Of a DNA stretch of 64,000 nucleotides, positions 26,665 to 61,674 are shown in pieces (within the stretch, counting starts at the first letter, position 1; each line of letters begins with the position of its first letter). The position numbers and the translations under genes were made by a program. The notes under the pieces were generated by a model. The model searched no databases and was not told where the DNA came from. It saw only the letters and a list, made by a program, of their open reading frames with translations. Source of the DNA: Lingula anatina (taxonomy: Eukaryota; Animalia; Brachiopoda); contig CM120647.1 of assembly GCA_051362555.1 (NCBI GenBank), positions 10,433,378 through 10,497,377 of the forward strand, written 5' to 3'.

Positions 26665-26751
26665 CACCCTGAGCTTCAGAGATAACTTGACACGATGGAG
26701 ATAGGCTATAGTGAAGAGGTTAGTGTCAAGTTATCTCTGAAGCTCAGGGTG
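26665..26751. mobile_element. 87-bp miniature DNA transposon with perfect 29-bp TIRs and an 8-bp TSD
   Basis: caccctgagcttcagagataacttgacac ... gtgtcaagttatctctgaagctcagggtg. TSD tgtctact at 26657-26664 and 26752-26759. Confidence 0.85.
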
Positions 26752-27683: not shown

Positions 27684-27918
27684 GGGACCATTCCCACAGA
27701 TATTTGGATCGATCTATCTCCCTGGGGAGTCTCACTAAATTTTTGTCAACTTGACCAGCTTAAATGTCTGTCATGCCTAGTAAAGCTGTTTGGGGATAGT
27801 TATCTTTATCCCCTAGCTGATTGGGTAGGCGTGACAGACATTTAAACCGGTTATTTGATAGCAATTTAGTGAGACTCCCATGGGAGTTAGATCGATCTCT
27901 AGGCATGGGAACCCACTC
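27684..27918. mobile_element. PIF/Harbinger-type MITE overlapping the stop codon of the HELZ2-like fusion ORF
   Basis: TTA duplications at 27681-27683 and 27919-27921. Carries the family's gatcgatcta/ggggagtctcac inverted blocks seen at 31518, 36354, 46779 and 59889. Confidence 0.8.
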
Positions 27919-28249
27919 TTAGAATGTGCTGTGGTGAATGCGGATAAAAAAATTGATGTAGTTCAGCTTCTCTCACTTTCAGTTTATTTGCACAATCAGA
28001 AAGGTTTTCATCTAGTAGTGCTTTACGTAAAGTAGAATATGGACGTTTGTCCATTTCTGCCTTCAAAATAACATTTAACAGTTTCCTGTTTGCCTCAGTC
28101 ATTGGCCCATTAAATTGATCTTCTTCATAATGTTCTATCATCCCAGCGGCCACCAAATGGTTCCTCATCATTTCTGGGTTCATTGTACAAATCAAATAAC
28201 GAAAACTACTTATAATTTTCAACTTCTCAAGCTTATATCGGCATGCTTC
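27899..28249 (-). CDS. Terminal exon: CARD-like death-fold domain
   Basis: KLKIISSFRYLICTMNPEMMRNHLVAAGMIEHYEEDQF...ANRKLLNVILK...PYSTLRKALLDENLSDCANKL follows the typical CARD six-helix pattern (L..L..HL...G.I...E; N..LL..I; Y..L..AL; A..L). Confidence 0.6.
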   Translation of the reverse strand, partial: EACRYKLEKLKIISSFRYLICTMNPEMMRNHLVAAGMIEHYEEDQFNGPMTEANRKLLNVILKAEMDKRPYSTLRKALLDENLSDCANKLKVREAELHQFFYPHSPQHILRVGSHA

Positions 28250-31200
28250 CTAAAAAGGAAAATTTAAATAACTTTGTCATAATTTAAAAATCATTAATGG
28301 TTGGTATAAATCAATAAAGCCATTGACATGCATTTGTTTTTCATATGTGGCAATGATTCCCCGTTTTGTGCCATCAAATCATTCCCCTGAAGAATTACCC
28401 AATGTGCTTTTCTTAAATACATCTAAAAAAATCCATTATGTTTTATCATGATAAATTACAAGAAGAATATAATACAGTGCAAACATTGATAAGTCATTAT
28501 ATTTTCATGCAAACTCAATGGGGAATAATTCAACTAATTACCTTCACTTGGTTGATGATGTCTCCTTCAAGAAGAGCTTCATTGCATAAATCCATGCATA
28601 AGAGATACAGGCGTCTCACATCTCCCTTTAACAACGTATTGAATATGACTTCCATGGTGACAACATAGGGGATGGGACAATTTGGTGGACCATTTAGATG
28701 TTTCAAAATACCTCCCCAAACATTGACCTTTTTAAATTCATCACTTAAAGAATCCCACAATTCACATGTAATGAACTGGCTGTCAGACTGAGCTGCATAT
28801 TGTTGACCGTGTGCTGCACCATACTGAACTAGTGACCCCTCAAAGCTTTGTTCCAAAGAGATTTCAGGATTGACTGATCCAGAGACACTTTCTGCCAATT
28901 CTACAGTGTAAGGCAATTCCCTCCTAGAATCATGTTCTCCCTGTCTGACTTTTGGTCGAACATCTGGTGATTTTACTGCGGTCTGCAATGTCCCATTTGG
29001 CATCAACTGATAATGGGAGTTAATATGTTCTGACACTGAATCTCCTCTTCTTGTAAAGGATTCTTCCAGCTCTTTCCTTGTTGTTTCTTCATTTTGTGGT
29101 TTTCTTGGCCCTTCATATGGCAATTCTGAATTCCCATTCATTTCTCCATATTCCAAAGACTGTTCAAAAGCTTCTTTCCTTTGTGTATTTTCATCACGTT
29201 TGGCATTATGATTTGAAACTAAATTTCTGTATTCAGAATGATTACCATTTGGCAGTGCCTTTAAAGAATCACCAGCCATAAGGAGCTGAAAAATATTTCA
29301 ATGCATTATGCAACAGTTGAAGAAAATTATAGCATTAAAAGAGACCAATTTTCAAAGTGAAAGGACATATAGACCTCTTCAGTCCATTCGCAGATTAGAT
29401 CAAAATAACAGATTGTGCATGCAGCACCAAAAATACAAACAATATGTGATTTAATTTCATATCTTGATTTAAGACATATATCGGTAATAATTATGATACT
29501 CCACAACATCTTGCTGAAATTTTCTATGGACTAGTTTTGAAGCATACCCAATTTTTTGTGATTTAATTTTCCACACTATACTAGTATCGATTTGATCTCT
29601 AGGTTCGTTAAGTCAATTAGAGACATGGAGATTCAGCGCAAGAGAAACACTAAACAGATATACCAGAACAATTGAAAAATACAATTCTATGTGAAAAAGC
29701 TATAAAAGAATCAAGCTGGTGGTACTTATAAGAGTAACCAATTATACATGCAGATCTACCGTAAAAGGTACCTGTATAAAAAAAAGGGGGGCTCATACAT
29801 TATCAATTTACCTCTTTAAGCATCTTTGTTATTACTATTTTTTTACAGGTATTATCGTCATTTTCCAGTTGAGCTTTGTATATCTTTATCTCACACTCAA
29901 TGACACTGGGGCACTGGCCGTCAGCAGGCTCCAAACGAAATACTGCACGTGTATCTATATCTTCAACTAGATCCAAATAGCTGACTTCCTGGAATCAGCA
30001 AACAGTTCATTCACACACACACACATATATATAACAGCTAGAATAGCTAGTTATTGTTATCATACCATTTAGCCCTTATCAAATTTGTGGTGGAATTTCC
30101 AAATGTACAAATACCAAGTTGTCAAACTGTTTCCACTTGTAGATCAATAACTTCAGAAGTCCTGCAGTTATAAAGTACTGGGCAGTAATACCACTTCAGA
30201 AATTCTACATTAACACATTTGCAGGATGGAAGACTGAAAAGATCTTTAAATTATTAGAATTATGTTATTTTCTACAATAATGATCACTACAGTAAAGAAT
30301 TTAACACTGAAGTTATGTTCTTTACTACCTGAATATGATCTTCTTTTCTAGTTAATTTCCAACAGTTTTCAAATTCACCAATTTCCAGACAAAGTCCACT
30401 ACATTCCTTGTGATGTTCACACAAGTATACAATGATACAGCGATAGTCAAGATACTTGAACTGCAATTTTGACATTTCTTTTTCAAGTTTCTGCAAGAAA
30501 AATAAATGCAAAAAAATGTAAAAAGCGACTGATAAACAACTGAGCCAGCAGAGGCTGTTAAATGTACAACACTGGATCTGTAGCACTCCATTAACGTGAC
30601 AAATGACGTATTAAAAAAAATAATCCTTCATTTCTTATTCTATGTCTGTTAAAACATTAAAATATGACCAAATGTTGAGCAATTACATGAAGCAATTATG
30701 AATATACCTCTCTTTCATCTGGCAGATCTGCTATGCAGTGAACATTTAGATTAAGTTTTCGTCTTTCTACATCATACAATTGCCCATAGGCTTGCACCTG
30801 CATCTTCTTTTTGTTGCATGAGGTGCTGTGTTTGGTAAAATGGTGCAGGCCAATTATACACCTGTTGTGTAGGAACATAGAAAAATAATTGTCCTTCAGC
30901 AGTTTCCAGTCACAACATTCATCAAACCCCGTTTCTGAGCTCCAGATGTTTTTTTGGGTATTTAGTCCATGTACATCAGGAATGCAGTGACTGATGGTTA
31001 AGAAGATCATCTTTTTAAACATCAATCCATGGGGCTCACAAAATACCACAGGGGATGTTTGTGCCTGATCAGGACCAACTGGGAGCTTGTCTTGTTCTCT
31101 TCTGGTAATCCCCAGAGTTATCAATGTTTGGCTTTCTAAGGCTCCTGGTGGTACATACAAGGAAACCCCTGTTCCAGGGAGAGTCAAAATACCACCCTGC

Positions 31201-34200
31201 TCATCCACCCAGAACTGGTAATAGTATAGTTCACCAGCTATGTTGCTTTCATAGTCAAAACATGGAGGTGTTCCTGGAGTGCTCGTTCCTGAGAAGGAAA
31301 ACAAAGAATTAGCTCTATCCTAAGTAATACTATGTAAATGTCCACAATGAGGCGCATTTTTCTATATCTTGGGATTATCGCCATTGTAACTATCGGTCAT
31401 GTAGATTGGTAAAAACTCCACGGGGACTCTAGCTGAATGCAGTCAGATTAGCAGATTAAAACGCGTCCTCCTGGCATTGAGTAGAATACAGAAAAGTTGG
31501 TAATCATATATGACTAAGGGCGCATTCCAACAGATTTTAGATCGATCTATCCCCATGGGGAGTCTCACTAGATTACTGTCAGATAATCCGGCTTAAATGT
31601 CCGTCCAGCCTACTATAAGCTGTAAGGGGGTAATTAACTTTCGTGCCCGCTCGGCTGACAGCTATTTAGCAGGGAGTTAGGTCAATCTAGTGTGGATCGA
31701 TCTAATTTCTGGGAATGTGGTCTAAGTTGGAAACAAGAGCGTATGCATCTGTTAATCTGATTTCATTCAGTGAGAGTCCTCGGAAGACCAGTAGTTTCAT
31801 TGGGAATGAGTTGAGGATCCTTATTTACCTTTTCAACTTTTTCATTTAATTTTTTTAAACCATCAAAATAATAATTTCAAAGAACTCTGTTTGAAAATTA
31901 CAAGTGCAGAGATGGGTTGAGCAGTGTTTCACAAAAAAAAAAAAAAAAAAAAAAAAACGACAAATGCTCCCCCCCCCCCCCCCCATTCTGGCATGTTTAT
32001 CTCTAACTTACTATCATATGTAAACAGGTACAAGGTAGAATAAATGTTTACAAAATGGAATTTCTTACCTCTACTCTGAGAAGACAGCGAACTATTTATA
32101 GTCCCTGTGCTTGTTGATAAACTGGCCACTTCAGTATCTATATACAAAGAAATTACAGTTAAATCTGTTGAAAATCATATCAGTAACAATGAACTAATGA
32201 GCAAATAAATAATTTATAAACAAAAAAATGATAATTACAATCAACACATGCTAGTATTTGATTTTTCGTCAAATTATTTATTTTCAAAAATTATTCACTA
32301 GTTTTGCTGACATGAAATATCTTTCCTATGCCAAATTGGTCAGAATTATTCATACCACTGATATTCGGTGTCTGTGTGTGTTGAAATGACTGTCATGTGT
32401 AATATTTACCTTACCTACCTGTATAATTTTCCTCATTTAAATTCATTTTAGGTTTCACATGATCTCTAAACATTTCATGGTTTCTAAATCTGGGTGGAAG
32501 GTCTGCAATGAACTTCTTTCCTACAAGAAACAGTCATTTATGGATGCAAAATATTTAGCAGTATCACTTTATTGATTTATCAGTGTGGATGCATAAAAGG
32601 AAAGACCAGGTATTGCTATAAAATTAATTTTATAGTAATTGTAATTCATCAAAGAGATAAAATAATGATTAGTTCAAAAATATGGAAAATTCCTCTTAAA
32701 GATAGAAAATTGCCATTAAGATGAGTTCAAGAACTGTTTAAAAAGCTGTCAAGCAACTTTCCTTCTTTCTTTAGAAGCAAGTGGGCAAAATTGGACATAA
32801 TAAAACATCAAAGGATGTTTTTTGCTTTTGATGAGCCATGATCATCTTTCCTACTTGTTATATTTCACAGCAGTTTGGGGGAAAATGAAACAGACATGAA
32901 TGAATAAATTTTTTATTCAATTTAACAAAAAAATAAATAAATGAATATTTAAAAACTAAACACCCTCAAACATTTTATTTGAAAGTTGTACAAAATAACA
33001 GCATAAAAATAGATAAATAAAAGACTTATAAGATTGTTTAAATCAATTTAAGTATTAAACTTAAAAAGAAAGCAAACATCATTTTTTATTTCTTATTCAA
33101 AATAGACATTACTTACTATCTGCGAACATTTCATATTGGTCTTTAGGTGTTTTCCTCTTGGGTCTTTCTATTAGAGGCATCTCTATCTCTTCAGGGAGAA
33201 AATCCTCAGCATTTACAACACATCCCTTTTCCTGGTAATATTCCAACAGTGACTTCCATACTTTGTCAACTTTAAGCAGATTGTCATTTCCTGAAATAAT
33301 ATATCATTCACATGGAATTCCTAGTTTCCGCAGTAAAAGCTCATGTCTGAAAAATGCCTACAGACATATACTGGAGCTTTAACATCCCTTTATTCTGGAA
33401 TATATACCCAGTACCACCCAACAAATTACTGCAACCAAAACTACACTGTAAGATGCTTAATGAAAGCAGCTACTTTTTGCCTATAAATACATTGTAAACA
33501 ACTCTTTAAAATATAATAAATTTTATTTTATCAGTTAAAGCAGAAATTCTGAAATTTGTGGTTGTCACGTGACCTCCATAGATGTCTACACTCTGTAATA
33601 ATCACTTAAGAGAATATTATAAAAAAAAACTTTTTAGAAAAAAAACAAGGACTAACTTTGAATGTGGAAATGGATTCATTAACCATTGGTACGTATGGAA
33701 AAATTATCCTTTATCCTAGGAAAATCCATTGTTTGGCCAAAATGAACAGTTGTTATCTTTATAAATATCGATGTCTACCCAACTTTTTTAAAAGTGCTTA
33801 TTTTACAAAAGCTGACAAACATATTAAAGTTGAATTTTCAAGCAAGATTTTTAGGGGTCAACATGTCAAGTTATTAAGGTAGTAATTAACAGTAAATTGT
33901 CAAAATTTGGGTGTTTTTCTGAATTTGTCAGTATTAGATAGATGAAATATCAACTACATATCAGCCTATCTTAAAATAATGGAAGTTTACAAATAAACAC
34001 GTAATTTTAGCCTAATTGCTGATTTACCCCTGTGGTAGCGTGTCTGAGTTTTAAAGTAGGTTTCACTTGTCCATATATGTGTTTGATTGGCAGCTCCACT
34101 GTGCAGCTGTATATTTCCCGTACTAGATTGCTGCTAAGCCTTTCACATTCTGTGAGTAACGTCGCGCTTTCACTTGCTAAACAATACTTTTCATTTTGAA

Positions 34201-37200
34201 TTTATCAGTGAACTTAATTCTGATGATCTGTTAAAGCTTTAAAAAGCAGACATATAGATGAGACGTATATGGGCAAAGGCACTCCCCCTAGGTGTCACGT
34301 GGTGAAGAAGGCTGAGGTCACGACTAACATGGTGGCTGCTGTCAATGCATGGAGGGGGCCTCCGGTTGAAAATGTTCAATAATAATGTTGAAAATGGATG
34401 AAAGACATAGTGACAGTTACATAGGCAGTGAGTAGAGGGCTGAACCAGTTTAAATAACTAAATTTCTCAGCTTGCCAATGCAGCTCACTGATTATATAAC
34501 GTTGGAATCTCCGGGGAGCACTAAAAGGCTGATTTCTCCGCTTCAGTTTATGGCTTCAAGAGAACGATTTAGACCAGTGTCAAAATAAATTAGAACTCTC
34601 AACCGATGAAAGCTGGTATTCATTCATTAGATCTAAGGTTTGTCTGAAAGTATGTGTCTGGGATTTCATAACATCAGCTCCGTTTTCAACTTAGGCATAC
34701 TTTAGTTAGGCTAGGGGGTCTCGTTGAACTGGAAACCAAGTTTATTTTGATATCTCTGCTAATTTAACACATATCGCTAATTTGAGGCGCATTCTTGTTG
34801 ATCCCTATGAGGGCTCACAAGTCAAGCTGTCTACACATGTCCATTTGTAGTGGACTTCTAGTTTTTAAGGTGTAAAGATTATGTTGAGCACACCTATTAA
34901 GCATTATATCTCATTACGTAACGATTACATAATAAAATAAGGATATGAAATGAAGAGCTGTTGAAATAAGCTTTCTATTGATATGTAACATGTTGGTATA
35001 TCTTGGCCGGTTTAGAAGATAGCTACCCCTGTTATCTACATCCTTAAGTGTATTATCTTGAAGCTATAGTTGAGTTGGGGGAGGGTTAGGTGGTTCAAAT
35101 GCACTGCCCTTTTGGTCAGAAAGGTTGGGTCACCTAGGAGGGAGGTAAAAAGCTACTTTTTTGATAAAGTACCTGGTCTCCATTCTGAAATCACCGACTA
35201 TACAGACTTGTCTTAAATGTTGCCCTTACCAACAATAATGAGTCCCTTCTTTGCTCTTGTTAGTGCCACATTGACCTGGTTAGAGTCTATGATAAAACCA
35301 AGGTTCTTTTTGCGCCATCCAAGAGTTGGCCTCTCAAGTATATCATAGTCTGGGAGAGAACGAACTGTGCTCAGGAGTACATAGTCCCACTCCCCACCTA
35401 AAGTGATAATAAATTTTAATTACATTGGATTCCGTTCTCTACATAAAGATGTATGGTATTTTACAGCTGCAAGCTAGGCAAAGGTGGAGTATTCATGAAA
35501 AGAGCATTTAACATAATATGCTTAACAATTACATATTATATGAGTAATAATAAAACAAGTGATAACAAAATGGGTATTCATATAAAGAACGTTGAAGAAA
35601 TGATGTTGTTGAGAATAAATATATACTTCAAACTTATATTGGTGGTCATGCGCTCCATCTATTGAAGAACTAAGTAATCACAATGTACATTAAGTAAGTA
35701 ACACTAACACTTATTATGCTTTCAAAACAATCATTAAAATTTCAGTAAAGCATCAACAGTATAAATACCCTGTGCTCCTACTACAGTGCTGACATTTGGG
35801 TAAGGTATTATTTTTTCCAGTTCTTTTTTTATAGCATACACCTGAGCTTTGTACTGGGACAGGACCACAATATTGGAGGGTTCAATGTTGTGTTTTGTGA
35901 CTAGATTTTTGTACATCCGCACCTGAAAACAATTGATAACAATGTACTGGTAGGAATGCATCTGTCAAATTAAAAGTGAAAGAAATCATACAATAAATGA
36001 TTATGAATCAGGCTAGCTGTATAATAAAAGTGGAATGTTTAGCATTTTAAGTTCACACAGCAGATGATATTTATCACATAATGAAGCTTACAACATGTTT
36101 CATTTCATCTTCGTTGCTCTTAGATCTCTCACTCCCTTCACGTGTGGCAACAGGCAGGGTTGTCTCCTTTCCTTCAGTACAGCAAAATACAATAGCTTGG
36201 GGCTCGTCCCTTCCTGACCAAATTTCCAACTCTGGTGACTTTCCTTTCAGTGATGAATCTGTCTCTAGTTTTCCCCCATAAAACTTCTCTGATGGAAACT
36301 GGCATATGGTTTCATGCTAAAAGCAAAAGTATGTAAAGAGTAAATTAAGGTTAGACCCCATTTCTATAGATTAGATCGATCTACTTTAGATCAACCTAAC
36401 TCCATGGGGGTTCACGCTAAATAGCTGTCAGCCGGGCGGACAAAGTTAATTACCCCCTTACAGCTTGTAGTAGGCGGGACGGACATTTAAGCCAGATTAT
36501 CTGACAGTAATCAAGTGAGACTCCCCGCGGGGATTGATCGATCCAAAAGCTCTGGGAGTACAGCCTTAGTCTTTCAGTCTGGCAGCTAGCTAATGATGAC
36601 ATTGTTCTAATTGACACTTTTATAGAGCAAGCTAAAACATCACAATTAAAGTAATAAGTGGCAGACTGACAGCTATTCTTAAGCTTACCATTCTGTACTG
36701 AGTTTTAAGCATCATAGCCTTATAGGAGTATCTTTCAAACAATGACAAGGCAAGACCCAGATCACTTGCTGCTTTCAGAGGAACCACTGGACGTAACTGA
36801 CGATGGTCTCCGAGAAGGATTACTTGGTAAGCATTTGAAGCAACTATTGGCACCATTGTTTCTGGTTCCATGCACATTGCTGCTTCATCTATCATAAGCT
36901 GCCTGAAGTTTAAACCAGTCAATTTCTGGCTACCACTGACAGAGCAGGTACAGAGGATGACCTCCGCTTGCTGTAGAGCCTCCTGTTCTGCCTTGGCCAC
37001 TGTTGCTTTATATTTTGTCACATCTTCATGGGTTACAAGAAGAGGTTCCGTTTTGAACATCTCATCAAATTGAAGGATCTTCTTGCTATAACGGTTTGAA
37101 CATTCCCTGATCAAGTAGTGAAGACTCTGAGGTATGCAGTGAACATCAATTTCAGTGTCATCCTCTTCATCTCCATTCGTAGACATTTTTTTCCATGATC

Positions 37201-46200: not shown

Positions 46201-47624
46201 CACAGCATTGCAATACACATTTGGGGTTACTTGCATATGGTCACCAGTGAGACAAAGTACTGTGTCTTTGTTGGCCAACAGTAATGGAATCAGACTTTCT
46301 GGTTCTATTGCTTGTGCTGCCTCATCTATCAAAATGTGTGTAAACTTCCCAGACACACTTGTATCAAACAGCAAAATGGAAGACTTCAGTGTAGTGATAA
46401 TGATGTTGCTTTTTTGTAGCCTGGATTCACTGGGCAAGGTTAGTTTGGTATCATCATGTTCACAATACTGTAAAATGTCTGTGCGGACATCGCATATGGA
46501 CTTTTGGTCTTCATAAACCCTCAGAACACTCACTGTTTTCCCCCTTTCTTTCAGGAAGGGTTGCAGGTACTTCAGAATATAAATATCAGCAGCACTGAAA
46601 TTAACAAATAAAAGTAAATTATTATAATGTTGTTCAATATTATACGAATAAGTATCTAAGTTTTAACAATTGCTTAATGATTCCCCCATATTCAAGAATA
46701 TTTTACAATCACCCTCGACTCACCAAAAGAGGTACAAACCAGCTCAAAAGTAAAATGCACATTAGCACTGATGATTAAGGGCGCATTCCCACAGATTTTC
46801 GATCGATCTATCCCCGTGGGGAGTCTCACTAGATTACTGTCAGATAATCCGACTTAAATGTCCGTCCCGCCTAATACAAGCTGTAAGGGGGAAATTAACT
46901 TTCATGCCTGACACCTGACAGCTATTTAGCGTGAACCCCCAGGGAGTTAGGTCGATCTAGTTGGATCAATCTAATCTCTGAGAATGGGCTCTAAGACTAC
47001 TGTTAAATGTGCTGTGAGTACAGTGCCTTTACAAACACATTATAGCAGCAGAAAATTCTATTACCTATCTGACTTGCAGCATATAAGACAACGCTGCTGT
47101 GTGACACTGATCATATTCAACATGGCCTGTGAGAGGGTGTAAGTTTTTCCGCTGCCAAAAGGACCATATACTATCAAGGGAGGCTGCTTTATATACCCAG
47201 TCTTCTTGCTCAACAAATGACTTACAATCTGCAAGTTCTTCTCCTCAAAATTCTCACTCATGCTGAAAGTAAATTAATTATTGCAATTTTAATTTATTGA
47301 GTACACAGATATCTGCAACGTGAGGGACTGTCCCAATGTATTAAAACATCTTGCTTTATTGTGTGAAAAAAGTATAAATATTGTTATTGGAAGTATCACA
47401 TGATAGCCATGACTTAATTGTTATAAAATACTACTCAATAAATAACATAGGGAGAGATCCTCTACTGCTTGACCTCTATTTATCAAGGAATAGTCACAGT
47501 GGTAATAAATGGCAATCAATCAAGTCTCACGGTTTAGCATAAATTCATTCTATAGGCTCAGGTGATTCTAAATGCAGTTAAGTTTATTTGAATTTAAGAA
47601 TATTTCACTGCATGAATTTCATTT

Positions 47625-47679
<55 letters not shown>

Positions 47680-48565: not shown

Positions 48566-48604
<39 letters not shown>

Positions 48605-51600: not shown

Positions 51601-54600
51601 TGAATTGTTCATATGGTTTATAAGCCATGCCAGTAAATTATCATAGTGAGTCTTGGAATTATAAGATACTGAAATAAGTGTGAAATTTTTAATTTCTGTT
51701 GTATCACTGCAACTTCACTTTTGTTCTTACTTTTCACACAGCTCAAATTTGCCATTATACACTCCTAATGGTGGTTTCCTATGTTTGTAAGATGCATCCA
51801 GGTCCACTGTAGAATCTAAATTTGCCTTATGCTTGTCAGAGGCACAGTGTTTCTGATACTGGGCGTGGCTATTACATGTCACACAGCAAATCTCGCAAAA
51901 GACCTGCTTTCCAATTGTATTCGTACCCCGCTGAAGTACATGGGATGTCGAAGAATCTTTGCTTGATTTTCTAGTTGTCCGATTCCTTTGTGACACCATC
52001 ACCAATTCCTCCTGTGTGGCCACTAAAACATGCATATTATTTTCATTATTTAACTGGATTATTTCAGCAAATTTGAGGTAATCAATGTTAACCAATGTCA
52101 CCCATAAGGAGGCAATGCTGTTATCAAACTACAACTATTTTGGGGGACAACAATGCTTCAACTTTTTATGTAATCTAGGAATCAAACTTCTTTAACAATC
52201 ATAAACTAGAGGATCAGAGAGGCGATACCGCCTCCGAATATTGTACCACCAGCTGGAGCAAGCGCATTCGTATAGACCCCCACATACACAAAATAAGGGA
52301 CACAGCCACCAGTTTTGTGCTTGACAAGCTGTAAAAATGCAATCAACAAGAATTTTTAAACTTTTGCAAAAAATATATATGGTACAATCAAATTTAAGTT
52401 CTTCGTAAGATGTAAGATAGGTCAAGGGTCAATTTCAAGGTCACAGTAAATTGCCAGTATATGACTTCCTATTCAAGTTCAAGAGTAACTATGGACCTAT
52501 CTCTGCCAGTTATGGAGACAAAAGAAAAGCAAAATTTGCAAAGTTCAGTTCATGGTGAAAAGTAGGTCAAAGGTCAATTTTAAGGTCACATTTAGATTGC
52601 CAATATATGACTTCCTATTCAAGTTCAATAGTAACTATGGACCTATCTCTGCCAGTTTTGGAGATAAAAGGGAAGAAAAATTTGCAAAATTCAGTTCATG
52701 GTGAAAAGTAGGTCAAAGGTCAATTTTAAGGTGACAGAAAGATTGCCAGTATATGACTTCCTATTCAAGTTCAATAGTAACTACGGACCTATCTCTGCCA
52801 GTTTTGGAGATAAAAGGAAAGCAAAATTTGCAAAGTTCAATTCATGGTGAAAAGTAGGTCAAAGGTCAATTTTAAGGTCACATATAGATTGCCAGTATAT
52901 GACTTCCTATTCAAGTTCAATAGTAACTATGGACCTATCTCTGCCAGTTTTGGAGATAAAAGGAAAGCAAAATTTGCAAAGTTCAATTCATGGTGAAAAG
53001 TAGGTCAAAGGTCAATTTCAAGGTCACATTTAGATTGCCAGTATATGACTTTCTATTCAAGTTCAATAGTAACTACGGACCTATCTCAGCCAGTTTTGGA
53101 GATAAAAGAAAAGCAAAATTTGCAAAATTTAGTTCATGGTGTAAAGTAGGTCAAAGGTCAATTTTAAGGTCACATTTAGATTACCAGTATATGACTTCCT
53201 ATTACAGTTCAATAGTAACTATGGACCTATCTCTGCCAGTTTTGGAGATAAAAGGGAAGCAAAATTTGCAAAGTTCAGTTCATGGTGAAAAGTAGGTCAA
53301 AGGTCAATTTTAAGGTCACATAAAGATTGCCAGTATATGACTTCCTATTCAAGTTCAATAGTAACTACGGACCTATCTCTGCCAGTTTTGGAGATAAAAG
53401 GAAAGCAAAATTTGCAAAGTTCAATTCATGGTGAAAAGTAGGTCAAAGGTCAATTTTAAGGTCACATATAGATTGCCAGTATATGACTTCCTATTCAAGT
53501 TCAATAGTAACTACGGACCTATCTCTGCCAGTTTTGGAGATAAAAGGAAAGCAAAATTTGCAAAGTTCAATTCATGGTGAAAAGTAGGTCAAAGGTCAAT
53601 TTTAAGGTCACATATAGATTGCCAGTATATGACTTCCTATTCAAGTTCAATAGTAACTATGGACCTATCTCTGCCAGTTTTGGAGATAAAAGGAAAGCAA
53701 AATTTGCAAAGTTCAATTCATGGTGAAAAGTAGGTCAAAGGTCAATTTCAAGGTCACATTTAGATTGCCAGTATATGACTTTCTATTCAAGTTCAATAGT
53801 AACTACGGACCTATCTCAGCCAGTTTTGGAGATAAAAGAAAAGCAAAATTTGCAAAATTTAGTTCATGGTGTAAAGTAGGTCAAAGGTCAATTTTAAGGT
53901 CACATTTAGATTACCAGTATATGACTTCCTATTAAAGTTCAATAGTAACTATGGACCTATCTCTGCCAGTTTTGGAGATAAAAGGGAAGCAAAATTTGCA
54001 AAGTTCAGTTCATGGTGAAAAGTAGGTCAAAGGTCAATTTTAAGGTCACATAAAGATTGCCAGTATATGACTTCCTATTCAAGTTCAATAGTAACTACGG
54101 ACCTATCTCTGCCAGTTTTGGAGATAAAAGGAAAGCAAAATTTGCAAAGTTCAATTCATGGTGAAAAGTAGGTCAAAGGTCAATTTTAAGGTCACATATA
54201 GATTGCCAGTATATGACTTCCTATTCAAGTTCAATAGTAACTACGGACCTATCTCTGCCAGTTTTGGAGATAAAAGGAAAGCAAAATTTGCAAAGTTCAG
54301 TTCATGGTGAAAAGTAGGTCAAAGGTCAATTTTAAGGTCACAGAAAGATAGCCAGTATATGACTTCCTATTCAACTTCAATAGTAACTATGGACCTATCT
54401 CTGCCAGTTTTGGAGATATAAGGGACTAAATGTTATAATTTTGGAGTTACCATAATGTGCCTTAAATTTCGTACAGAAAAAATTAATTAAAATAAAGAAA
54501 ATGTCATTTTGGTCAAAATTCTAGAAATAGGAGGTGCTCTGAAGTTTCAGAAGTTCAAATTTGATGAAATAATGTCATTTTTGAACACAAGTTGTCTGCT

Positions 54601-57600
54601 TTTCCAAGTCTTATGTTTTATTTTTCCAGAGTTCAAAATTTATTATCCATTACCGTACTGCACATTTTGCTTTTACCACCAATATGTACTTTTTGATACA
54701 GCGTAACTCGAAAACCGTATGGAATACAAAAAAACCGAGACCACCTCCAGTGTTGGGCTTTACATGCTCTACAAAATGCAAAAAAGAATGGGTCTCTAGC
54801 ATTAACGGTTCCCGAATTAGAGACAGTTTTCAGTTTCGGTATCTTATGGCCGCTACTCCCGTGAAAATGCACCGATTGACCCCAAATTCATGGAGATGAA
54901 AGATGACCTGAAGGGTAACACTTTCCAATAATATTATTGGTTAAGTCTGTGTAGTGTCTGAATAACAGGGCAAAAAATTTTTTTTTTCGTAAAAAATTTC
55001 ATTTTTTTGAAAATTTTGGCCCATTTGACCTTGAAGTAAAGGTCAAAGGTCAAATCCAAGGGTATATTTGAAATCTACACATATGACTTTTGGAAAGCCG
55101 TCTATAGAAATTTTTCCCATAACTCCTTCCGTAGGGTAGATAATTAGCATTTAATTTTGCCATTTTTAGACAAGGGTGCATTGTAATGAGTGCCACACCC
55201 AGACCCCAATACCGACAAAGCCCAAATTTTACGTGGAACGAGTTGAGATTATAGGTGACCTAAATCCATGAGATGGGTACGGGGGCCCTTACCATCTAGG
55301 AGGAGAAGCGGTAACGGTAGCCGTCCGGCGGAGCCGGCGGAACGATCCGGACGGGACCGAAATCATGTGTACCGCCAGCGCTAACGCTGGTGGTACAATA
55401 ATTGAACCTTAGTGAATTTTAACCTAACAAGCTTTATTCAGAGTAAGCTGAAATTTAGCTAATAACCCAACTAATTTTTACTGTATATTGTATATCATAT
55501 TATCACTGCTACTTTGGAGTATTACAATCGACTTCTGATAATTATAACCACAATATAGACTGTCACTTTAACCAGCTTGTTTGAGATGAGAGAATTGAAC
55601 TCTCAAAATGTTCATTCAGGGGCAGATCATGAGATATTTTCTGACAGTCCTCCAAATTATCTTTGTTGATCCCACCTCCATTTTTGTCCATCTTCCAAAA
55701 GAAAAAATTAGTAAACTTGAAAATGACATTCAGGCTGTCTTCTGGAAGACAGTTTCCATCTACCACTTTCATTTTCAGTATCTTATTAAATTATCATTTT
55801 AATAGGAATTTGAAATTTTACAAATACATACCATTATTTTTCTTTTGCCACTCCCAAATCTCCTTCTCCTCCAAACTGTGGGGGAATCTACATGGACCAC
55901 CCCAATAAGAACACTTCCCTTTCTGCTCAATTCCGCGACATAATTTAAATGTGTCATTTGGTATAGATGGACAGTCTCTTATTTCAAATGCCTTTCTACC
56001 ACGGCTATTATACACACATATTTTGGTATTTGAGGACCAAGGATGTCTTGAAGCACTGCATTTTGATTCGGTTCTGTTTGGACCAGCTACCCGTCCTTCT
56101 TCAAAACATTTCCTGCAACACCAACTGAGATCATAAGGGCAATTAATGTTGCGCAATTGCTCATCAGTAGAAAAGCAAGAAGTGATGGAAGACATAGAAT
56201 CTGTTCTTTTAAGTGTTTGCTCTACGGAATCGGGGATTGTTTCTGGCAAAGAAGCCATTCTCTTTCTTTGAATTCCAGCCTGTCTTTTGGATGTTACTTC
56301 TGCCTGAAGTTGCTTCCTATCTATTCCCATCTTGTCTTCATACTGCCAGACATCTTGTTCAACCACAGAATGGGCTAGCTTTGTTTTACAGGTTTCATCT
56401 ACACACAATTTTCCCTTCTTACACAATGCAAAGTCTCCAGGTATTGTTGGCTTGGGGTTTATTACCAATGTTTCCATTTCCCCTCCTACCTTTTTCTGAT
56501 GAATAAGTACATTTGATCCCATTACCCACTCATGACACTTTGGATCTTCACAAATAGAGCGTCCAGGTCTTTTCTTGCTTATGACCGGTGGTTTTCGTTG
56601 AAAGCAGTCTCTGCACACAACTTTGAATTGTCCGCCATGCTTTATTAAAATTGAAGAAATTGACAATTGAGAAGCTGAGGCTGCAACAGCTGGTCCCTTT
56701 TCCTCTGGTGCAGAAAAACCTTTGAGCCTTTCAAAAAAAGATAAGATGCTAAACTGTTCTTTTTTCTCTAGGTTCCACAAATTTCTTTCTTCCTCCGATC
56801 TGGCAAAGGTGCAACTGTCTCCATGGCAACATTTGCCATTTGCAATCACTGCTCCACACATCACATAGTTACCAGCAAAGGACTTGTGACTTGTTCGTAA
56901 CCGAATTTCCACCCAATGGGATAAGGGCTTGTTCTGGTTTTGTACAAGCAGCATGTTCCTTGTACACAAATGTGAAGTGGTGCCAACTCTCAGAGAGAAT
57001 TTCTCTTCATTTTCAACTTTTTCAGTGCATTTACTGCAACCCACCATTGCCCTGTAGGGAGCGCCTAAAGCAGTGCTTATTTGGGCTGCCAGGCTTTGAA
57101 TAGAATTCCCTGAGACAGATGATGCATCTGCAGGGCTGGTCATTCCTATAATAAATTACTAAATTAATCAGCTAATATATAATCAAAATATCGGGAACAT
57201 GCTGATAAAGACAAAGTTCTGTGGTTGTGAATTATCAAGCTTTATTTACTTTCTTCAATAACAAAACATAGAAACTTAAAAACATTAATTATAATTTGTC
57301 TTATTATACTGAATATGAAAGATACTTTTTCAGTAATGCACCCAGCAACACACAGTAGCAGCATATAGACAATCATTTATCATCAACAAATCTCAAAGCA
57401 TTCATGCATGCCCTAGCTTATTTCATGTGTGAACGTTCATGCAGTCACAGCAAGATATTAAAAAAAACATTTCCACATGACAATGTATGAAGTCTTACCT
57501 TGCTCTGGACCTTGTAAAGTTGAATGTTCTCTTTTCAAGTGACCCTTATGGAAAAATCAAATTATAACCTTACAAGACATGACTAATTTATAATTCAAAT

Positions 57601-60600
57601 AGCTTTACAAAACAACATACAGTGATGATTAACTACACTACAAGCAAGGACACTAAGGGACCGTTCACATGAAAAATCTATTTTCTAAAAATCTATTTGT
57701 GGTATCTTGTGATCATTGTCTGTGCCCTGAATACCCCGCTATGTAATTACTTGCAGTGCCGAGAATTAATTACAACTTTGGAAGTAACTGGCTCTTGCTG
57801 CCCATAATTACGCTGTGGGGTATTCAGGGCACAGACCATGATCACAAGATACCACATATACAGATTTTTAGATTTTTAGAAAATAGATTTTTTATATGAA
57901 CGGAGCCTAAGATGCCATATCCCCTGTGCCCAATTAAGAAGGGCCAATTGCATCTGATTTGAAATTATTTAAATCTAAAAAAAAAACAATATTTTTCTCA
58001 CCACCATCGTTTTTATGGGGTTTTGTCCTTCTGCATCATTTGGTTTATCTACTCTTAGTCTTCCTACTATTTCTGTCCTGCAATGAAAATAAAAATCAAA
58101 ACATGATGAACCTTTTTCGCATTCTAAAAGCTGGATTGTTTTTTTCCTGAATTCCAAAGCTTTTTGTTGGTTTGTTTTTCTACAAGCTTTGGATTGTATT
58201 CATTTAAGCCTTTGTACTTTAAAAAGGAAGAAAAAATATCAAATGATCAGTCAAGATAAATGGAACTTATAGCAAAGAGTTACTTTCAACTGAAACTATG
58301 CCATTTTCATTGTGAAAAAATATTGAAATACAAGTGAAGGGAAAGGTGGCAATTACTGAATTCAAATCTAAAACTTGGAGCTAGACACTGTAGTCAAAAT
58401 AATTACTGAAAAATTTTGGAATGGGTGAGAAAAGTTTTATGTTGTACAAGAGAAAAGTTATCAACAATGTGGTAAACATTTTGTTATGCAACCTTGGATA
58501 TTTTCTTCCAAAATTCTATTTTAATCTTTTATTTACATGTCCTAAACAAACAAATCCTAAAAAGCACAACTTAAAGATACAACAAAAGCAACAATAAATA
58601 AATAAATAAATACAGAATAAATCATAAATAAATTTCCATCTGAACACTCACCCTACATTAGTCTGATTTGTTTTATTTTGATCAAATGTTTGAGGTTCCT
58701 GTTTAACAGATCCAGTGTCCAACTCTTTCTGTCTCTGCAGTAGCTTTTGCTGGTGTTTAGAGCCACTGCAATGTTGGTGGTACTGTTGCTGCCCATTACA
58801 AATGACGTTACACACATCACACTTAAAATATCCTGCTTTGCTGGGGGTCTCTCTGATCTTATCCTCAGCCTTTATCGACTGCTGTAGACATTCTGTTTCT
58901 CTTGATGCTACAAAAGACAAATATATTGATAAATTAATGAGTTGGTGAATGAATAAAACAAATAAATAATTTAAACTAAATAAATAAATTCAACAAGAAT
59001 TACTTTTATTGCAGAATATTTAATGTATTTAAAAATAGCAAATATGTCAGTTTTATAGCATACAAATAAAAACAAAAATATTTAAATTTAAACTTGAAAC
59101 TTTCTGTAAGTTGTAACATTTCTAATATGTGTAACCCATATCATGCACTGATCTGCATCAGACTGATTCTAAATTATAACATTCCTGAAAAATGCTCTAA
59201 TGCCAGGAACTAACCTAAAGCTTTTTCTGCTTTCTCATCTGCAGGAAGAGTTTGTCTTAAATTAACCTGTTTGAAAGATTAATATCTGAGATACAAAAAT
59301 GATGAAAATAACAACTGTTACAACAACAATAACAATAATAATTACAAAACGGTTATGGAGAACATAAAAAAAACATAAGGCAGGCTCGCTGAATGCTGAA
59401 CCAGTGTTATTTTGAAATCAATCAATTTGCAATCAATGTATTCAACTAGCACGCAAATGTACAGTTTTTGCTCAGATTTACAGAAAGTAGGTCAAATGCA
59501 TGATACAGGAAAAAAATTTAATTAATTAATTTAAAAATGAACAAATAAACAAAAATTAATTTAATAATTAAAAAAGAAATAATGAAATGAAAATACAATA
59601 ACAATATTAATACTGATGAATTCAAAATCTGTTAGGTAAATTTTCTATTGATTTGATTTTATGAAGTGTTAAAATTAAACAAAATTTTCTCTTAATCTTG
59701 TCAACATAATACCTGCAGCTTCTTTGGTTTCTCCCCCGCCTCCATGTTTTTCATTTTCTTCTCAATTTCTAATTTTAGGTTAAAAATGGCATCTAAGGCT
59801 AAGGTCTCCTGTTATAAAAGTAGAAAGTAAATTTCAGAAGAACACATTAAATTTAATACATGGAAAATGTGGCAAAGACCTGCACTTAGACCCCATTCCC
59901 AGAGATTAGATTGATCTACTTTAGATCGACCTAACTCCCTGGGGGTTCACACTTAATAGCTGTCAGTCGAGCGGGCACGATAGTTGATTACCCCCTTACA
60001 GCTTGTAGTAGGGGGGACGGACATTTAAGCCTCTAGTGAGACTCCCCATGAGGATAGATCGATCTAAAAGCTCTGGGAATACACCCTTATATTTGTCTTG
60101 ATAAATACTGTTATCATTATAATGCAAAACATGTACAACCACCTAAGCTAAAGGTAAGTCAAAGGTTTCAATTCAAGTTATCAAAATAGAAATATTTGAA
60201 AATGCTGAAAGGTGTTGTGAAGGTTTATATTAACGCATGTCACAACTATTTTTGTCATCATGAAATGAAAATGAGCCTTACCTTTCAAATCAGTTTCTTA
60301 TTATAATAAATAATTCTAGATGCTAGCTATTATTGTAAAGTGTATCATATTAACTTGCTGTTTCTACTCACTGTTTACATCTCATTCTTTCATAGTGAAC
60401 ATAAAACCTACCTGACACTGGTTCATTTCTATTGCAGCGTTCACTTCTTTTAATGCCTGGTCAAACTTCTTTAGTCTGAGCATAATTTGAGCCAATTTAT
60501 GATGTGCATCAAACAGATAGACCTGCATATTTATACTTGGTGTTTTCCATCTAGTGATGATCTGAATGACTGAAAATAAATATATGTCAGACATACCAGT

Positions 60601-61674
60601 AATACTAGTACATAATTGGCAGAGCCTGCCAGGATAATCTGAATTATTGATATTTACGGTACTGCTAAATTTACAAAATGGCAATTATTTTGTAACTTAT
60701 TAAAATCAATTCCTTACCTTCTTTACAATGTTTACAGGCCTCCTCCAAGAAAAGCTCCTTCTCCTATTAAAATAACTGTGAAACATTAATTAAAAATTAT
60801 CACAAAAACTGAATATCTATCATCAGCAAATTGTGTTCACAAGCAGGATGAAAAATGGCCCTATAAACACACCATGTATTCAGGTGAGCAAAGACAGTTA
60901 TACGAAAGCTCTCTCTATATGCATAAAATAAATGTCCACGTTTTTTTTTTAATGAATGCACCTTTGTGTCTATAATTGTACTACCTGAAGCAGCTGGCTT
61001 TCTTCTTTGATGCTATCAATATGGCACAAACAAAACAGAGCATGGTGTAGTTTTAGTGAAATAAGTAACTCCTGATAATCAAGAGCATCACACAATCTTG
61101 TCCCTAGGGCAATCGCAGTTCTGTTCCAGAGCAGTGCAGTTAGTGGCTCCCCCGAACAACAGGCAGCTAGTGTCTGATCTTTGCTTTCCTTCAAGTATTT
61201 TATTTCATCCTAAAATGTTTTTTAGAAAAATAATTAATGTAAAATGTATCACTGAAATACAATATAGTGCCACCTTTTTTTTATTATTATTATTTTGCAT
61301 CTATTGTAAATTAAGCTAATTGAAGTTTATATCTATCATGTCATAGCAATTAAAATTGGATATTACAAAATTTAATGTCAGTTTGAAAAATTCTGCAATA
61401 AAAGGTGATTTTTTTTCCCAGGATACACTATTTAAAACAACCTTCCTTGCACCATGGTACACTTATCATCAACAATAAGTTACATTGCATAGACATAAAC
61501 AATGGATAATAAAATGATAAATAAATAAAGTAACATAATAAATATCTACTTCATGTAGAAAATCCAATGGAGAAAACTGATGGAAGTTCAACCCTGTCTC
61601 GATTTCTCTTTGCAACTTTAAAATCATAGGAATTTCTTCAGCTTGCAAACACCTTGGTTTTGAATATTTAAGGG
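27899..61674 (-). CDS. HELZ2: Giant HELZ2-like helicase/RNB exoribonuclease with predicted C-terminal ZU5-UPA-death-fold extension (33 exons traced, >=~4,250 aa, 5' end unresolved)
   Basis: Exons (high-low): 61674-61550, 61209-60985, 60763-60718, 60569-60412, 59808-59713, 59266-59215, 58907-58657, 57544-57499, 57145-55832, 52022-51731, 50865-50688, 49822-49697, 49374-48851, 48384-47917, 47262-47065, 46594-45829, 43626-43539, 43012-39145, 38956-38859, 38365-38228, 37816-37673, 37323-36689, 36316-36092, 35922-35769, 35397-35230, 33290-33117, 32520-32419, 32137-32069, 31288-30708, 30490-30329, 29988-29812, 29285-28542, 28249-27899. Phases chain without a stop. HELZ2-like identity is strong; fusion of the last 7 exons is inferred. 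Confidence 0.75.
28542..29285 (-). CDS. Exon: low-complexity linker followed by a death-domain-like helical segment
   Basis: Phase-0 acceptor ttcag|CTC CTT ATG. About 170 aa of polar linker, then CELWDSLSDEFKKVNVWGGILKHL...MEVIFNTLLKGDVRRLYLLCMDL (death-domain-like W..L pattern, by eye). Confidence 0.5.
29812..31288 (-). CDS. Exons encoding ZU5 and UPA-like domains
   Basis: ZU5 signature VDEQGGILTLPGTGVSLYVPPGAL...SPVVFCEPHGLMFKKMIFLTISHC, ending in LHHFT. It is followed by beta-rich UPA-like segments LNLNVHCIADLPD and FRLEP...IECEIKIY (exons 31288-30708, 30490-30329, 29988-29812). Confidence 0.8.
31518..31722. mobile_element. PIF/Harbinger-type MITE nested in an older hairpin element (~31420-31810)
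   Basis: TAA TSD and TIR gggcgcattcc...gggaatgtggtc. The flanks gctgaatgcagtcagattagcagat and atctgttaatctgatttcattcagt are mutually inverted. Confidence 0.8.
33878..35043. mobile_element. Non-autonomous Kolobok-like DNA transposon
   Basis: TTAA on both sides, GG...CC termini and a degenerate TIR (ggtagtaattaacag vs ggatgtagataacag). Subterminal gctttctattgatatgtaacat motif. Confidence 0.5.
35230..38365 (-). CDS. Second SF1 (UPF1-like) helicase module of the HELZ2-like gene
   Basis: LIQGPPG|TGKT, ILVCGPSNKSLD, MIDEAAM, GDHRQLRP, LSLFERY, LKTQYRM|H, SQYKAQV, GAQG|GEWDYVLLSTVRS, NVALTRAKKGLIIVG. Confidence 0.93.
36354..36565. mobile_element. PIF/Harbinger-type MITE (inverted relative to the 31518 copy)
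   Basis: TTA TSD and near identity to the reverse complement of 31518-31722 and 46779-46991. Confidence 0.85.
39145..43012 (-). CDS. 3.9-kb exon: end of helicase 1, OB/CSD region and RNB (RNase II/R) domain
   Basis: LLNTAFTRARSLVMVIGDP, the catalytic motif FTIDPLNAKDFDDALS, VHIADVAYYV, SHQLVEEWMIEAN and YTQFTSPVRRYIDLIVHRLL. Confidence 0.95.
43054..43304. mobile_element. Diverged MITE of the same PIF/Harbinger-type group
   Basis: tta|gacccc...gggaatggggtc|taa ends, an internal hairpin cctactgaagct...agcttcagtagg and the gatcgatcta motif. Confidence 0.65.
43743..43905. repeat. Tandem duplication of an ~80-bp segment
   Basis: caacaaatgtgaagaaaagtcacagatgag...gagaccattcactag occurs twice, identically. 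Confidence 0.9.
44039..45395 (+). mobile_element. PIF/Harbinger transposon derivative with a Myb/SANT-like gene remnant
   Basis: TIR ggcccgtattcca / tggaatacgggcc and 3-bp TSD TAG. A degraded segment at ~44400-44520 reads ...FSDIEK/QLLMQLVNREKPILD, resembling the Harbinger Myb/SANT-like accessory protein. Confidence 0.7.
44553..45071 (+). mobile_element. Helentron-associated (HINE/DINE-1-like) element nested in the Harbinger copy
   Basis: 5' ttacctccaccaag, (GTTT/GTCT)n microsatellite, three internal ~125-bp repeats, 3' ttgggtggag subTIR, stem-loop cactctcggagtg and a CTAGT end. Confidence 0.65.
45829..47262 (-). CDS. First SF1 helicase module of the HELZ2-like gene
   Basis: PLIVYGPFGSGKT, LICCKSD|SAAD, FTHILIDEAAQ, GDHMQVTP, LSGNYRN, YYNIAEA, ILTPYYEQ. 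Confidence 0.93.
46779..46991. mobile_element. PIF/Harbinger-type MITE
   Basis: TAA TSD and high similarity to 31518-31722. Confidence 0.85.
50130..50575. mobile_element. Two adjacent degenerate MITE copies of the same group
   Basis: Recurrent blocks ttcccatacctagatc, gcttcagtagg..tgacagaca and gggaac/gttagatcga that are shared with 43054 and 27684. Confidence 0.5.
50688..58907 (-). CDS. Zinc-finger region of the HELZ2-like gene: two U1/matrin-type C2H2 fingers and several CCCH-type fingers
   Basis: CDVCNVICNGQQQYHQHCSGSKH (~58760), CEICCVTCNSHAQYQKHCASDKH (~51870), and C..G.C.F[AP]HS.EE...W motifs at ~56800, ~56370, ~55870 and ~50820. Confidence 0.85.
51032..51207. mobile_element. MITE with CAGG-start TIRs and a 5-bp TSD
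   Basis: caggtccgtag ... ctacgggcctg, with TSD ctatt at 51027-51031 and 51208-51212. Confidence 0.75.
52203..55401 (-). mobile_element. ~3.2-kb non-autonomous Helentron-like element carrying a satellite array
   Basis: Perfect 15-bp subterminal inverted repeats tattgtaccaccagc (52239) and gctggtggtacaata (55386). The latter also pairs locally with tgtaccgccagcg. Stem-loop gaggcg-atac-cgcctc and aactag lie at the other end. Confidence 0.75.
52416..54420. repeat. Satellite array, ~13.7 copies of a 146-bp unit with a 730-bp (5-mer) higher-order duplication
   Basis: aggtcaaaggtca recurs every 146 bp from 52564 to 54316. Diagnostic variants recur 730 bp apart (e.g. identical ORF starts at 52990 and 53720). 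Confidence 0.95.
55617..55760. mobile_element. Degenerate copy of the 62072-62265 MITE
   Basis: cagggg..gat..gagat..tttctgacagtc.tcc.aattatctttgtt...gtaaacttgaaaat...gtcttc.ggaagac is shared with the 62072 copy. Confidence 0.65.
57657..57907. mobile_element. Fold-back MITE, PIF/Harbinger-like
   Basis: TAA TSD. The two ~110-bp arms are near-perfect inverted repeats (ccgttcacatgaaaaatctattttctaaaaatcta...gtgccctgaatacccc). Confidence 0.85.
59713..61674 (-). CDS. N-terminal helical, TPR-like exons of the HELZ2-like gene
   Basis: AHHKLAQIMLRLKKFDQALKEVNAAIEMN fits a TPR pattern. The exons chain in phase into the zinc-finger exons. Confidence 0.6.
59889..60086. mobile_element. PIF/Harbinger-type MITE
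   Basis: TTA TSD and near identity to 36354-36565 apart from a small internal deletion. Confidence 0.85.

Follow-up and report, generated by a model that had tools for sequence, protein, structure and literature searches.

Where does the HELZ2-like gene of the brachiopod Lingula anatina end, and what would an RNA-degrading enzyme do with a tail beyond that end? The question is raised by a 64-kb window of Lingula DNA (the whole stretch analysed, to whose positions all coordinates refer), on the minus strand of which a chain of exons leads from zinc fingers, two helicases and an RNB exoribonuclease domain into a ZU5 domain followed by segments resembling death folds. We consider it very probable that this complete fusion of a HELZ2-like body with a ZU5-bearing tail is real. 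The chain, from 61674 to 27899, comprises 34 exons encoding 4,287 residues with no internal stop, its 5′ end being open, and has 34 AG acceptors, 32 GT donors and one GC donor (47917). This agrees with the original prediction of a single protein of about 4,250 residues or more, the fusion being backed both by RNA junctions and by a RefSeq model, XP_023931638.1. The parts of the gene are as follows (SF1, superfamily 1; X6, one of the RNA runs described below).

59215-61674, minus strand: TPR-like region, six N-terminal exons (TPR_2, E 5.7e-4 on the open reading frame 60385-60684; exon chain)
50688-58907, minus strand: zinc-finger region, two C2H2 fingers (zf-met, at about 58821 and 51897, E 4.7e-5 each), collinear with HELZ2-like relatives by tblastn
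57145-55832 and 50865-50688, minus strand: CCCH-like repeats (zf-CCCH, E 0.005)
42880-47262, minus strand: first SF1 (UPF1-like) helicase (AAA_11/AAA_12; Walker A 47165, Walker B 46326, motif III 46245, motif VI 42902)
41970-42245, minus strand: HELZ2-type OB fold (PF25049, E 1.1e-22)
40455-41528, minus strand: RNB 3′-5′ exoribonuclease domain (PF00773, E 3.2e-69)
33117-38365, minus strand: second SF1 helicase, 7 exons (AAA_11 E 7.7e-46 and AAA_12 E 7.9e-46, on XP_023931638.1)
32419-32520, minus strand: bridge exon 1, 102 nt, phase 1-1 (RNA joints on either side, 6 and 10 reads)
32069-32137, minus strand: bridge exon 2, 69 nt, phase 1-1, Ser/Thr-rich (5′ joint, 10 reads; 3′ joint by X6 depth and XP_023931638.1)
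30708-31288, minus strand: ZU5 domain and start of the likely UPA (PF00791, E 2.5e-17)
29812-30490, minus strand: rest of the likely UPA, exons 30490-30329 and 29988-29812 (beta-rich in a low-confidence model)
28800-29285, minus strand: linker of about 160 residues, probably disordered (almost no secondary structure in the model; no Pfam match)
28542-28799, minus strand: death-fold-like helical segment, possibly degenerate (structure comparison and Atlas, weak)
27899-28249, minus strand: CARD-like domain and stop codon, last exon (Atlas and PDB, two weak agreeing tests)

One reading frame spliced past the likely old gene end

Transcription was followed in raw RNA reads of runs with the same species label, seven of the nine listed runs being used in two mappings, one of four runs on 26000-39500 and the other of four runs on 30597-33296 at 94% likeness. 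A joint was listed only if supported by at least three reads in one run, and the figures cover joints and variant rows among those listed. Expression is low, and the reads are dominated by a dispersed repeat. The last exon of the second helicase (33290-33117) ends, exactly as the original prediction had it, at an A/GTAAGT donor located 6 nt ahead of the read-through stop, a TAA at 33111-33109. The joint 33117>32520 was found in 6 reads (X8 2, X9 4) with GT-AG ends, and the joint 32419>32137, which skips the 281 nt expected, in 10 (X7 2, X8 3, X9 5); the two bridge exons so connected contain no stops, as claimed. Further joints were recovered in the tail (29812>29285, 6 reads) and inside the second helicase (37673>37323 and about 38228>37816), and minus-strand RNA of the stranded runs X1, X2 and X4 covers the helicase exons and those of the tail to a similarly low depth, about 0.2-2 per 450-nt bin. 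Past the helicase donor, in the 90-nt bin 33027-33116, depth is 0, 0.02, 0.04 and 0 in four runs, against 0.51, 2.0, 2.54 and 0.58 in the adjoining exon bin. None of these runs shows transcripts continuing to the TAA at 33109. The opposite case considered beforehand, in which all transcripts read on to this stop, is thus contradicted by a depth of practically zero beyond the donor.

The predicted path 33117>32520>32137>31288 is therefore borne out by reads at its first two junctions, whereas the third, 32069>31288, does not appear among the joints listed in either mapping and is carried by depth in X6 and by XP_023931638.1. Sense depth in X6 is 1.22 on 32037-32126 and 2.7 on 31227-31316, and falls to 0 in the intron bins beside them (31317-31406 and 31947-32036, partly masked), which is indirectly the pattern that a splice 32069>31288 predicts. 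Besides the unlisted joint, two observations weigh against an unbroken transcript: every listed alignment of X7-X9 on bridge exon 2 ends at 32089, and four AATAAA sites lie in the intron behind 33117, which makes a tail-less isoform possible in other tissues. Depth in X7-X9 is also 0 at the start of the ZU5 exon (31227-31316) at 94% likeness. The animals of these runs differ from the window by about 5% in the ZU5 exon and by about 3-5% overall, and at 92% likeness roughly twice as many letters of X7 are placed on that exon as at 94%; the missing depth is likely to be due to allele divergence. Over 30735-36769, X7-X9 RNA differs from the window at many exon sites, with 16 of the 24 listed affected codons non-synonymous and none turned into a stop, and the source could be a divergent allele, population or paralog.

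At the far side of the third junction, the acceptor 31288 ranks first of 3,820 minus-strand AG sites under a simple scoring matrix, in keeping with the strong acceptor described beforehand, and the ZU5 exon lacks a starting Met, its earliest being codon 89. Four phase-0 exons follow, at the positions foreseen (30490-30329, 29988-29812, 29285-28542 and 28249-27899). XP_023931638.1 (Lingula anatina, 'helicase with zinc finger domain 2-like', P0001 among the relatives below) comes from the same locus, and its splices are identical to those of the original prediction. The final 2,025 residues of our model differ from it at three positions. The RefSeq protein is 5′-truncated: it begins at model residue 2263, inside the RNB domain and past the catalytic Asp motif, and the window (61674-41300, minus strand) adds 2,262 N-terminal residues that include this motif. 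The sequence is thus already in RefSeq as a plain HELZ2-like protein, under a name that ignores the tail. An assembly artefact was considered and set aside, the joins being identical in RefSeq and RNA.

Upstream of 43012, 18 exons are based on splice signals, phase and tblastn to relatives rather than on RNA. Position 61674 is a phase-1 internal acceptor, so the start codon must lie further upstream and the protein must be longer than 4,287 residues; a 52-nt ATG exon at 63881-63830 is a phase-compatible candidate first exon. The GC-AG intron 47916-47263 is required by the chain, as an alternative GT 5 bases earlier disrupts the frame. A giant exon of 3,868 nt (43012-39145, minus strand) holds the end of the first helicase, the OB folds, the RNB domain and the region after it, and the fact that many relatives are open reading frames of similar size and span suggests that this exon is old.

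The enzyme body and the domains of the tail

In its body, the Lingula protein follows the domain order of HELZ2 (PRIC285/PDIP1) and of invertebrate HELZ2-like proteins, from zinc fingers through a first SF1 helicase, OB_HELZ2 and RNB to a second SF1 helicase, and it shares with them the four catalytic Asp and an N-terminal TPR region of the kind found in several invertebrate members (P0005, P0025, P0074 and P0179). It differs from them in an extension of 746 residues with ZU5 and death-fold-like domains. All four catalytic Asp of the RNB domain are intact from 41492 on, and a downstream RNA-binding motif is kept in alignment to DIS3L2 and Rrp44. The second helicase retains Walker A (38237), Walker B (36889), motif III and motif VI (35275), and its best PDB matches are UPF1/NAM7, with SEN1 also found. 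Human HELZ2 is an interferon-induced 3′-5′ exoribonuclease whose helicases enable the degradation of structured RNA, and the family occurs in corals and molluscs (PMC10516660); HELZ2 is also reported to restrict LINE-1 (PMC9839780). Judged by its intact catalytic residues and by analogy with the vertebrate protein, the body would unwind structured RNA and degrade it in the 3′-5′ direction.

The labels of the tail are of unequal strength. The ZU5 assignment is firm, and UNC5B (3g5b) is the best solved match of the module (E 3.1e-9 over 167 residues), in an alignment that passes the ZU5 end and continues for about 40 residues across the first UPA strands; a UPA after the ZU5 is accordingly probable, if weakly supported. 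The CARD-like nature of the last exon is moderately supported: its first Atlas match is a CARD cluster (CARD on 61% of members; 0.91, 184/256 features), and all seven PDB matches at E up to 10 are Apaf-1 CARD (E 0.25-0.32). The first death fold is only suggestive. Its model has four helices at a predicted local distance difference test score (pLDDT) of 51; among the top 50 rows of a VIA search with this model, 22 are death folds with Z of 4.0-4.8, which is less than the tool regards as trustworthy, and the two best rows are Piezo. In Atlas, a Death cluster comes at rank 3 (0.81), and phmmer against the PDB gave one unrelated row only. AlphaFold without an alignment produced an unusable model of the 670-residue tail (pLDDT 34.7), for which Foldseek found nothing at E 0.001, a search uninformative on the fold. 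Between the second helicase and the ZU5 lies a low-complexity linker of about 90 residues.

A profile search expected to return RNB, AAA_11/12, ZU5, UPA, Death and CARD recovered the first three; Pfam gave no match to UPA, Death or CARD on the tail even at E 10. The ZU5 stands (E 2.5e-17), and the other three labels are weaker than first claimed.

Relatives, origin of the tail and genomic setting

Relatives were sought by phmmer with 1,200 residues of the RNB exon, which gave 740 representatives at E 1e-30, and the best 150 of these 740, many of them single-exon fragments, were examined. Identity over the RNB exon is 26-35% to amphioxus, hemichordate, echinoderm, mollusc, annelid and vertebrate members, and the named top matches are mostly HELZ2 or HELZ2-like. 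Queried with ZU5-UPA, death-fold and CARD, only XP_023931638.1 matched, and none of the other 149; the RNB and ZU5 pairing that was to be looked for in other invertebrates was thus encountered, within this set, in the Lingula protein alone. Pfam scans of 35 long relatives (14 at E 0.01, 20 at E 1e-5 and one at E 0.01) detected no ZU5, Death or CARD, of which only the ZU5 negative is strong, because Pfam also misses the death folds of the Lingula protein itself. Word-index homolog searches, of the RNB region and ZU5 exon against longer proteins and of the tail against shorter ones, were blank and are weak negatives; an oyster search gave no occurrence of 'helicase with zinc finger' among the 20 matches listed.

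Where an RNB motif is followed by motif VI, the C-terminus lies at most 120 residues past motif VI in 37 of 40 proteins. The exceptions are the Lingula protein, with 800 residues, and two Owenia fusiformis proteins, with 686 and 476 residues in unrelated tails. The read-through form of the Lingula gene would end 74 residues past motif VI, within the range of 46-120 observed in 36 of the 40 relatives, and the donor at 33117 therefore probably arose just before the ancestral stop (33109). A tree of the region from RNB to helicase 2 was built from 15 of the 19 rows chosen (Haliotis, Gopherus, Mixophyes and Macrostomum being dropped as the motif pattern missed them) and rooted at its midpoint. In it the Lingula protein clusters with the two Owenia proteins (97/95), two molluscs join them next (93/95) and the deuterostomes stand apart; branches are long and there is no outgroup. 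As this branching agrees with animal phylogeny, the enzyme body appears to have been inherited vertically, with the tail as a late addition. The tail looks lineage-specific, and it can be hypothesised that the new donor captured a downstream ZU5-UPA-death-fold cassette.

The Owenia tails, in the same clade, comprise the C-terminal 640 residues of P0094 (CAH1780780.1) and the C-terminal 430 residues of P0109 (CAH1785472.1). That of P0094 has no Pfam match and one unrelated PDB match; by eye we take its His, Asp and Ser motifs to be spaced as in a trypsin-type protease, a reading without Pfam or PDB support.

The dispersed repeat that dominates the RNA reads is about 220 bp long, with copies 75-86% alike in both orientations, and is abundant in reads from other loci; the copy at 27683-27898 adjoins, and probably overlaps, the stop codon of the HELZ2-like gene. 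The other features of the window are listed below.

31510-31727, 36351-36571, 46771-46995, 59884-60089, 50436-50543 and 27683-27898: copies of the dispersed repeat
52418-54423: tandem repeat, 146 bp x 13.7, in an intron of the HELZ2-like gene
23499-24046: tandem repeat, 34 bp x 15.8
9955-12333 and 16508-16945, plus strand: gene with several homeodomain-like segments (Pfam Homeodomain, E 9.6e-9 and 0.025), presumably akin to dve/SATB-type genes
20095-18407, minus strand: RRM-containing gene (RRM_1, E 0.002), which we take to resemble ABT1/ESF2
24583-24876, plus strand: last exon of a PfkB sugar kinase (E 1.8e-12), presumably ketohexokinase-like, converging on the 3′ end of the HELZ2-like gene
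22932-22501, minus strand: open reading frame of 144 residues, no Pfam match, in our view the C-terminal end of a LINE reverse-transcriptase frame

A predicted self-cleavage site and the possible roles of the tail

The end of the ZU5 reads His-Phe-Thr at 30842-30836, with Phe at 30839 and Thr at 30836, which are Phe3767 and Thr3768 of the model. An ungapped count that starts at a Cys common to this protein and UNC5B aligns the Phe with residue 137 of chain 3g5b. This residue is taken as Leu677 of UNC5B, the same offset reproducing the published Cys663, Cys670 and Glu666. Leu677 corresponds to CARD8 Phe296; the PIDD site is HF/S, Ser, Thr or Cys are possible nucleophiles, and a ZU5 His is required for cleavage (PMC3210808). 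The His matching UNC5B His624 and CARD8 His252 is kept in Lingula. We therefore predict, from the motif and its position, that the ZU5 cleaves itself between Phe3767 and Thr3768 and leaves a piece of 520 residues; the HF/T motif, which in this register stands at a known ZU5 cleavage position, is a new observation, absent from the original prediction. Several points count against such cleavage: phmmer places a 5-residue gap at HF/T, so that the ungapped register is a manual reading; the nucleophile is Thr, versus Ser in PIDD1, NLRP1 and CARD8; the closest solved relatives of the ZU5 are UNC5B and ZO-1, neither of which is known to self-cleave; and no PIDD1, NLRP1 or CARD8 chain occurs among its solved-structure matches. 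In addition, the CxH motif of ZU5-superfamily autopeptidases (PMC3482391) is not present as such.

The comparison with known systems places the tail among several designs. NLRP1 and CARD8, whose FIIND is a ZU5-UPA followed by a CARD, share with the Lingula protein a C-terminal ZU5, a likely UPA, a CARD-like domain, a Phe with a hydroxyl residue at what is, in Lingula, the predicted cleavage position and the conserved ZU5 His; in contrast, the Lingula protein has no NACHT or LRR, its N-terminal part is an enzyme, it reads HF/T instead of SF/S, and an extra linker and death-fold-like segment precede its CARD-like domain. PIDD1 (LRR-ZU5-ZU5-UPA-DD) has the same His-Phe before the predicted scissile bond and probably the same ZU5-UPA-death-fold order, whereas the Lingula protein has one ZU5, no LRR, a Thr nucleophile and two death-fold-like units. 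The ZU5-UPA-DD supramodule of UNC5B is the best solved match, from the ZU5 into the first UPA strands, but UNC5B has extracellular and membrane parts that the Lingula protein lacks, and Leu-Gly where the latter has Phe-Thr. Pfam scans of the long open reading frames and of XP_023931638.1 returned no NACHT, LRR, second ZU5, RIG-I C-terminal domain or UNC5-type Ig/TSP ectodomain, and a helicase precedes the ZU5. Orthology to NLRP1 or PIDD1 was accordingly rejected, as was membership of the RIG-I-like receptors (RLRs), the helicases being SF1 rather than SF2, and the protein does not have the make-up of a UNC5 receptor.

The grafting of death folds onto RNA-handling proteins is itself a known theme, reported for Lingula in lophotrochozoan RLRs and TRADD-N fusions (PMC8998645, PMC8195603). 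In Lingula, CARD, DED or caspase domains have been grafted onto RLRs (PMC8998645). Marine invertebrates have TRADD-N adaptors joined to RNases, DDX60, MOV10 and UPA-ZU5, and brachiopods and cnidarians are described as possessing death-fold adaptors linked to RNases and RNA helicases (PMC8195603). Those proteins have SF2 helicases with N-terminal adaptors, or TRADD-N, whereas the Lingula protein has SF1 helicases, its own exonuclease and a C-terminal ZU5-based module. A literature search, outside which subscription journals fell, including a Lingula immune survey (PubMed 29278680), turned up no description of a ZU5 in a protein of the RNB or HELZ2 type; the terms XP_023931638, RNB and HELZ2 are absent from 12 of the 13 supplement files of PMC8195603, and the available part of PMC2575513 has no RNB or ZU5 passage. 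The RefSeq entry and the grafts on Lingula RLRs lower the surprise, and the Lingula protein is best regarded as a member of the HELZ2 family whose putative signalling tail is not described in the literature searched.

A sensor-effector function of the fusion is predicted by analogy. We propose, with somewhat less than even confidence, a tripwire like that of NLRP1, in which a self-cleaving ZU5 frees the tail to signal once the enzyme, itself probably antiviral, has been engaged or destroyed. Beyond the single frame that is transcribed and spliced past the old gene end, the body would act on structured RNA as outlined above, and the cut at Phe3767/Thr3768 would leave the UPA-linker-death fold-CARD piece non-covalently held, as the position of the motif suggests. 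If the N-terminal piece is lost to the proteasome, for example because a viral antagonist has attacked it, or is rearranged through the action of RNA, the held piece may be released, as in NLRP1 and CARD8, and the freed piece would oligomerise and recruit a CARD caspase or a death-domain adaptor for cell-death or inflammatory signalling. Functional degradation activates NLRP1 and CARD8 (PMC7483925); NLRP1 responds to double-stranded RNA and to proteases of viruses, and there is speculation that its FIIND was acquired late as a defence against antagonism (PMC8679799). PIDDosomes are the comparison case for the release of a death-fold piece (PMC9162469).

The design of NLRP1 and PIDD1 is favoured over a RIG-I-like switch because HF/T, in the ungapped register, stands at a known ZU5 cleavage position. 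We nevertheless weighed such a switch, a doubtful but serious alternative, in which the chain stays whole and RNA binding with ATP turnover opens a UNC5B-type clamp and exposes the death folds. UNC5B is indeed the best structural relative, Lingula RLRs bear the grafted domains described above (PMC8998645) and NLRP1 reportedly switches on binding double-stranded RNA (PMC8679799), but HF/T at the cleavage position would then be a coincidence, and linkers of about 90 and 160 residues fit release better than tight coupling. It is unlikely that the tail is instead an input, its death folds docking the nuclease on RLR/MAVS-type filaments or caspase scaffolds to reach viral RNA or to be activated. 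Death folds do work by homotypic docking, brachiopods and cnidarians do have adaptor-RNase and adaptor-helicase fusions (PMC8195603), and the first death fold looks degenerate; against this, a C-terminal ZU5-UPA-CARD is an output module in NLRP1 and CARD8 (PMC7483925), and docking needs no ZU5.

We give a similarly low likelihood to a recent, mostly neutral fusion, in which a new donor joined neighbouring genes whose halves remain independent, perhaps separated by self-cleavage, with no signal passing between them. It would account for the lack of a second species with the fusion among the 149 relatives and for a donor that overlaps the likely ancestral end, and the non-synonymous majority of the listed RNA-variant codons fits relaxed constraint as well as positive selection. 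However, all eight tail exons are stop-free and spliced, read-through reads were not seen, and the join is kept in the window, in the RefSeq haplotype (3 differences in 2,025 residues) and in the RNA of animals about 3-5% divergent. Two separate genes, with a helicase transcript ending in or after bridge exon 2 and a ZU5 gene with its own start, are highly improbable: they would fit the unlisted joint 32069>31288, the lack of X7-X9 depth on 31227-31316 at 94% likeness and a read-through of the 32069 donor that stays open for about 45 codons more, but X6 sense depth drops to 0 at both intron edges, the ZU5 exon has no Met before codon 89 and RefSeq joins both.

A wider proposal, which we consider rather unlikely but worth stating, is that a brachiopod has independently set a booby trap in the style of NLRP1 on HELZ2, the nuclease-helicase destroying foreign RNA and its self-cleaved UPA-death fold-CARD fragment firing once the enzyme is engaged or attacked. 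This would amount to an NLR-free inflammasome-like sensor, and the HELZ2 C-terminus would be a swappable effector slot in lophotrochozoans; the two Owenia relatives in Lingula's clade bear other long tails. The case is so far limited to one species of a non-model animal, and ZU5-death-fold cassettes are often shuffled in marine invertebrates. HELZ2 is known as an interferon-induced effector rather than as a receptor that signals, and the literature searched contains no study of what it does outside vertebrates. Its fusion to a module of the ZU5-UPA-CARD type strongly hints that HELZ2 has long served in immunity and is itself targeted by pathogens, and the fusion would be a natural test of whether the FIIND-CARD of NLRP1 is a portable tripwire that can be placed on proteins which pathogens destroy.

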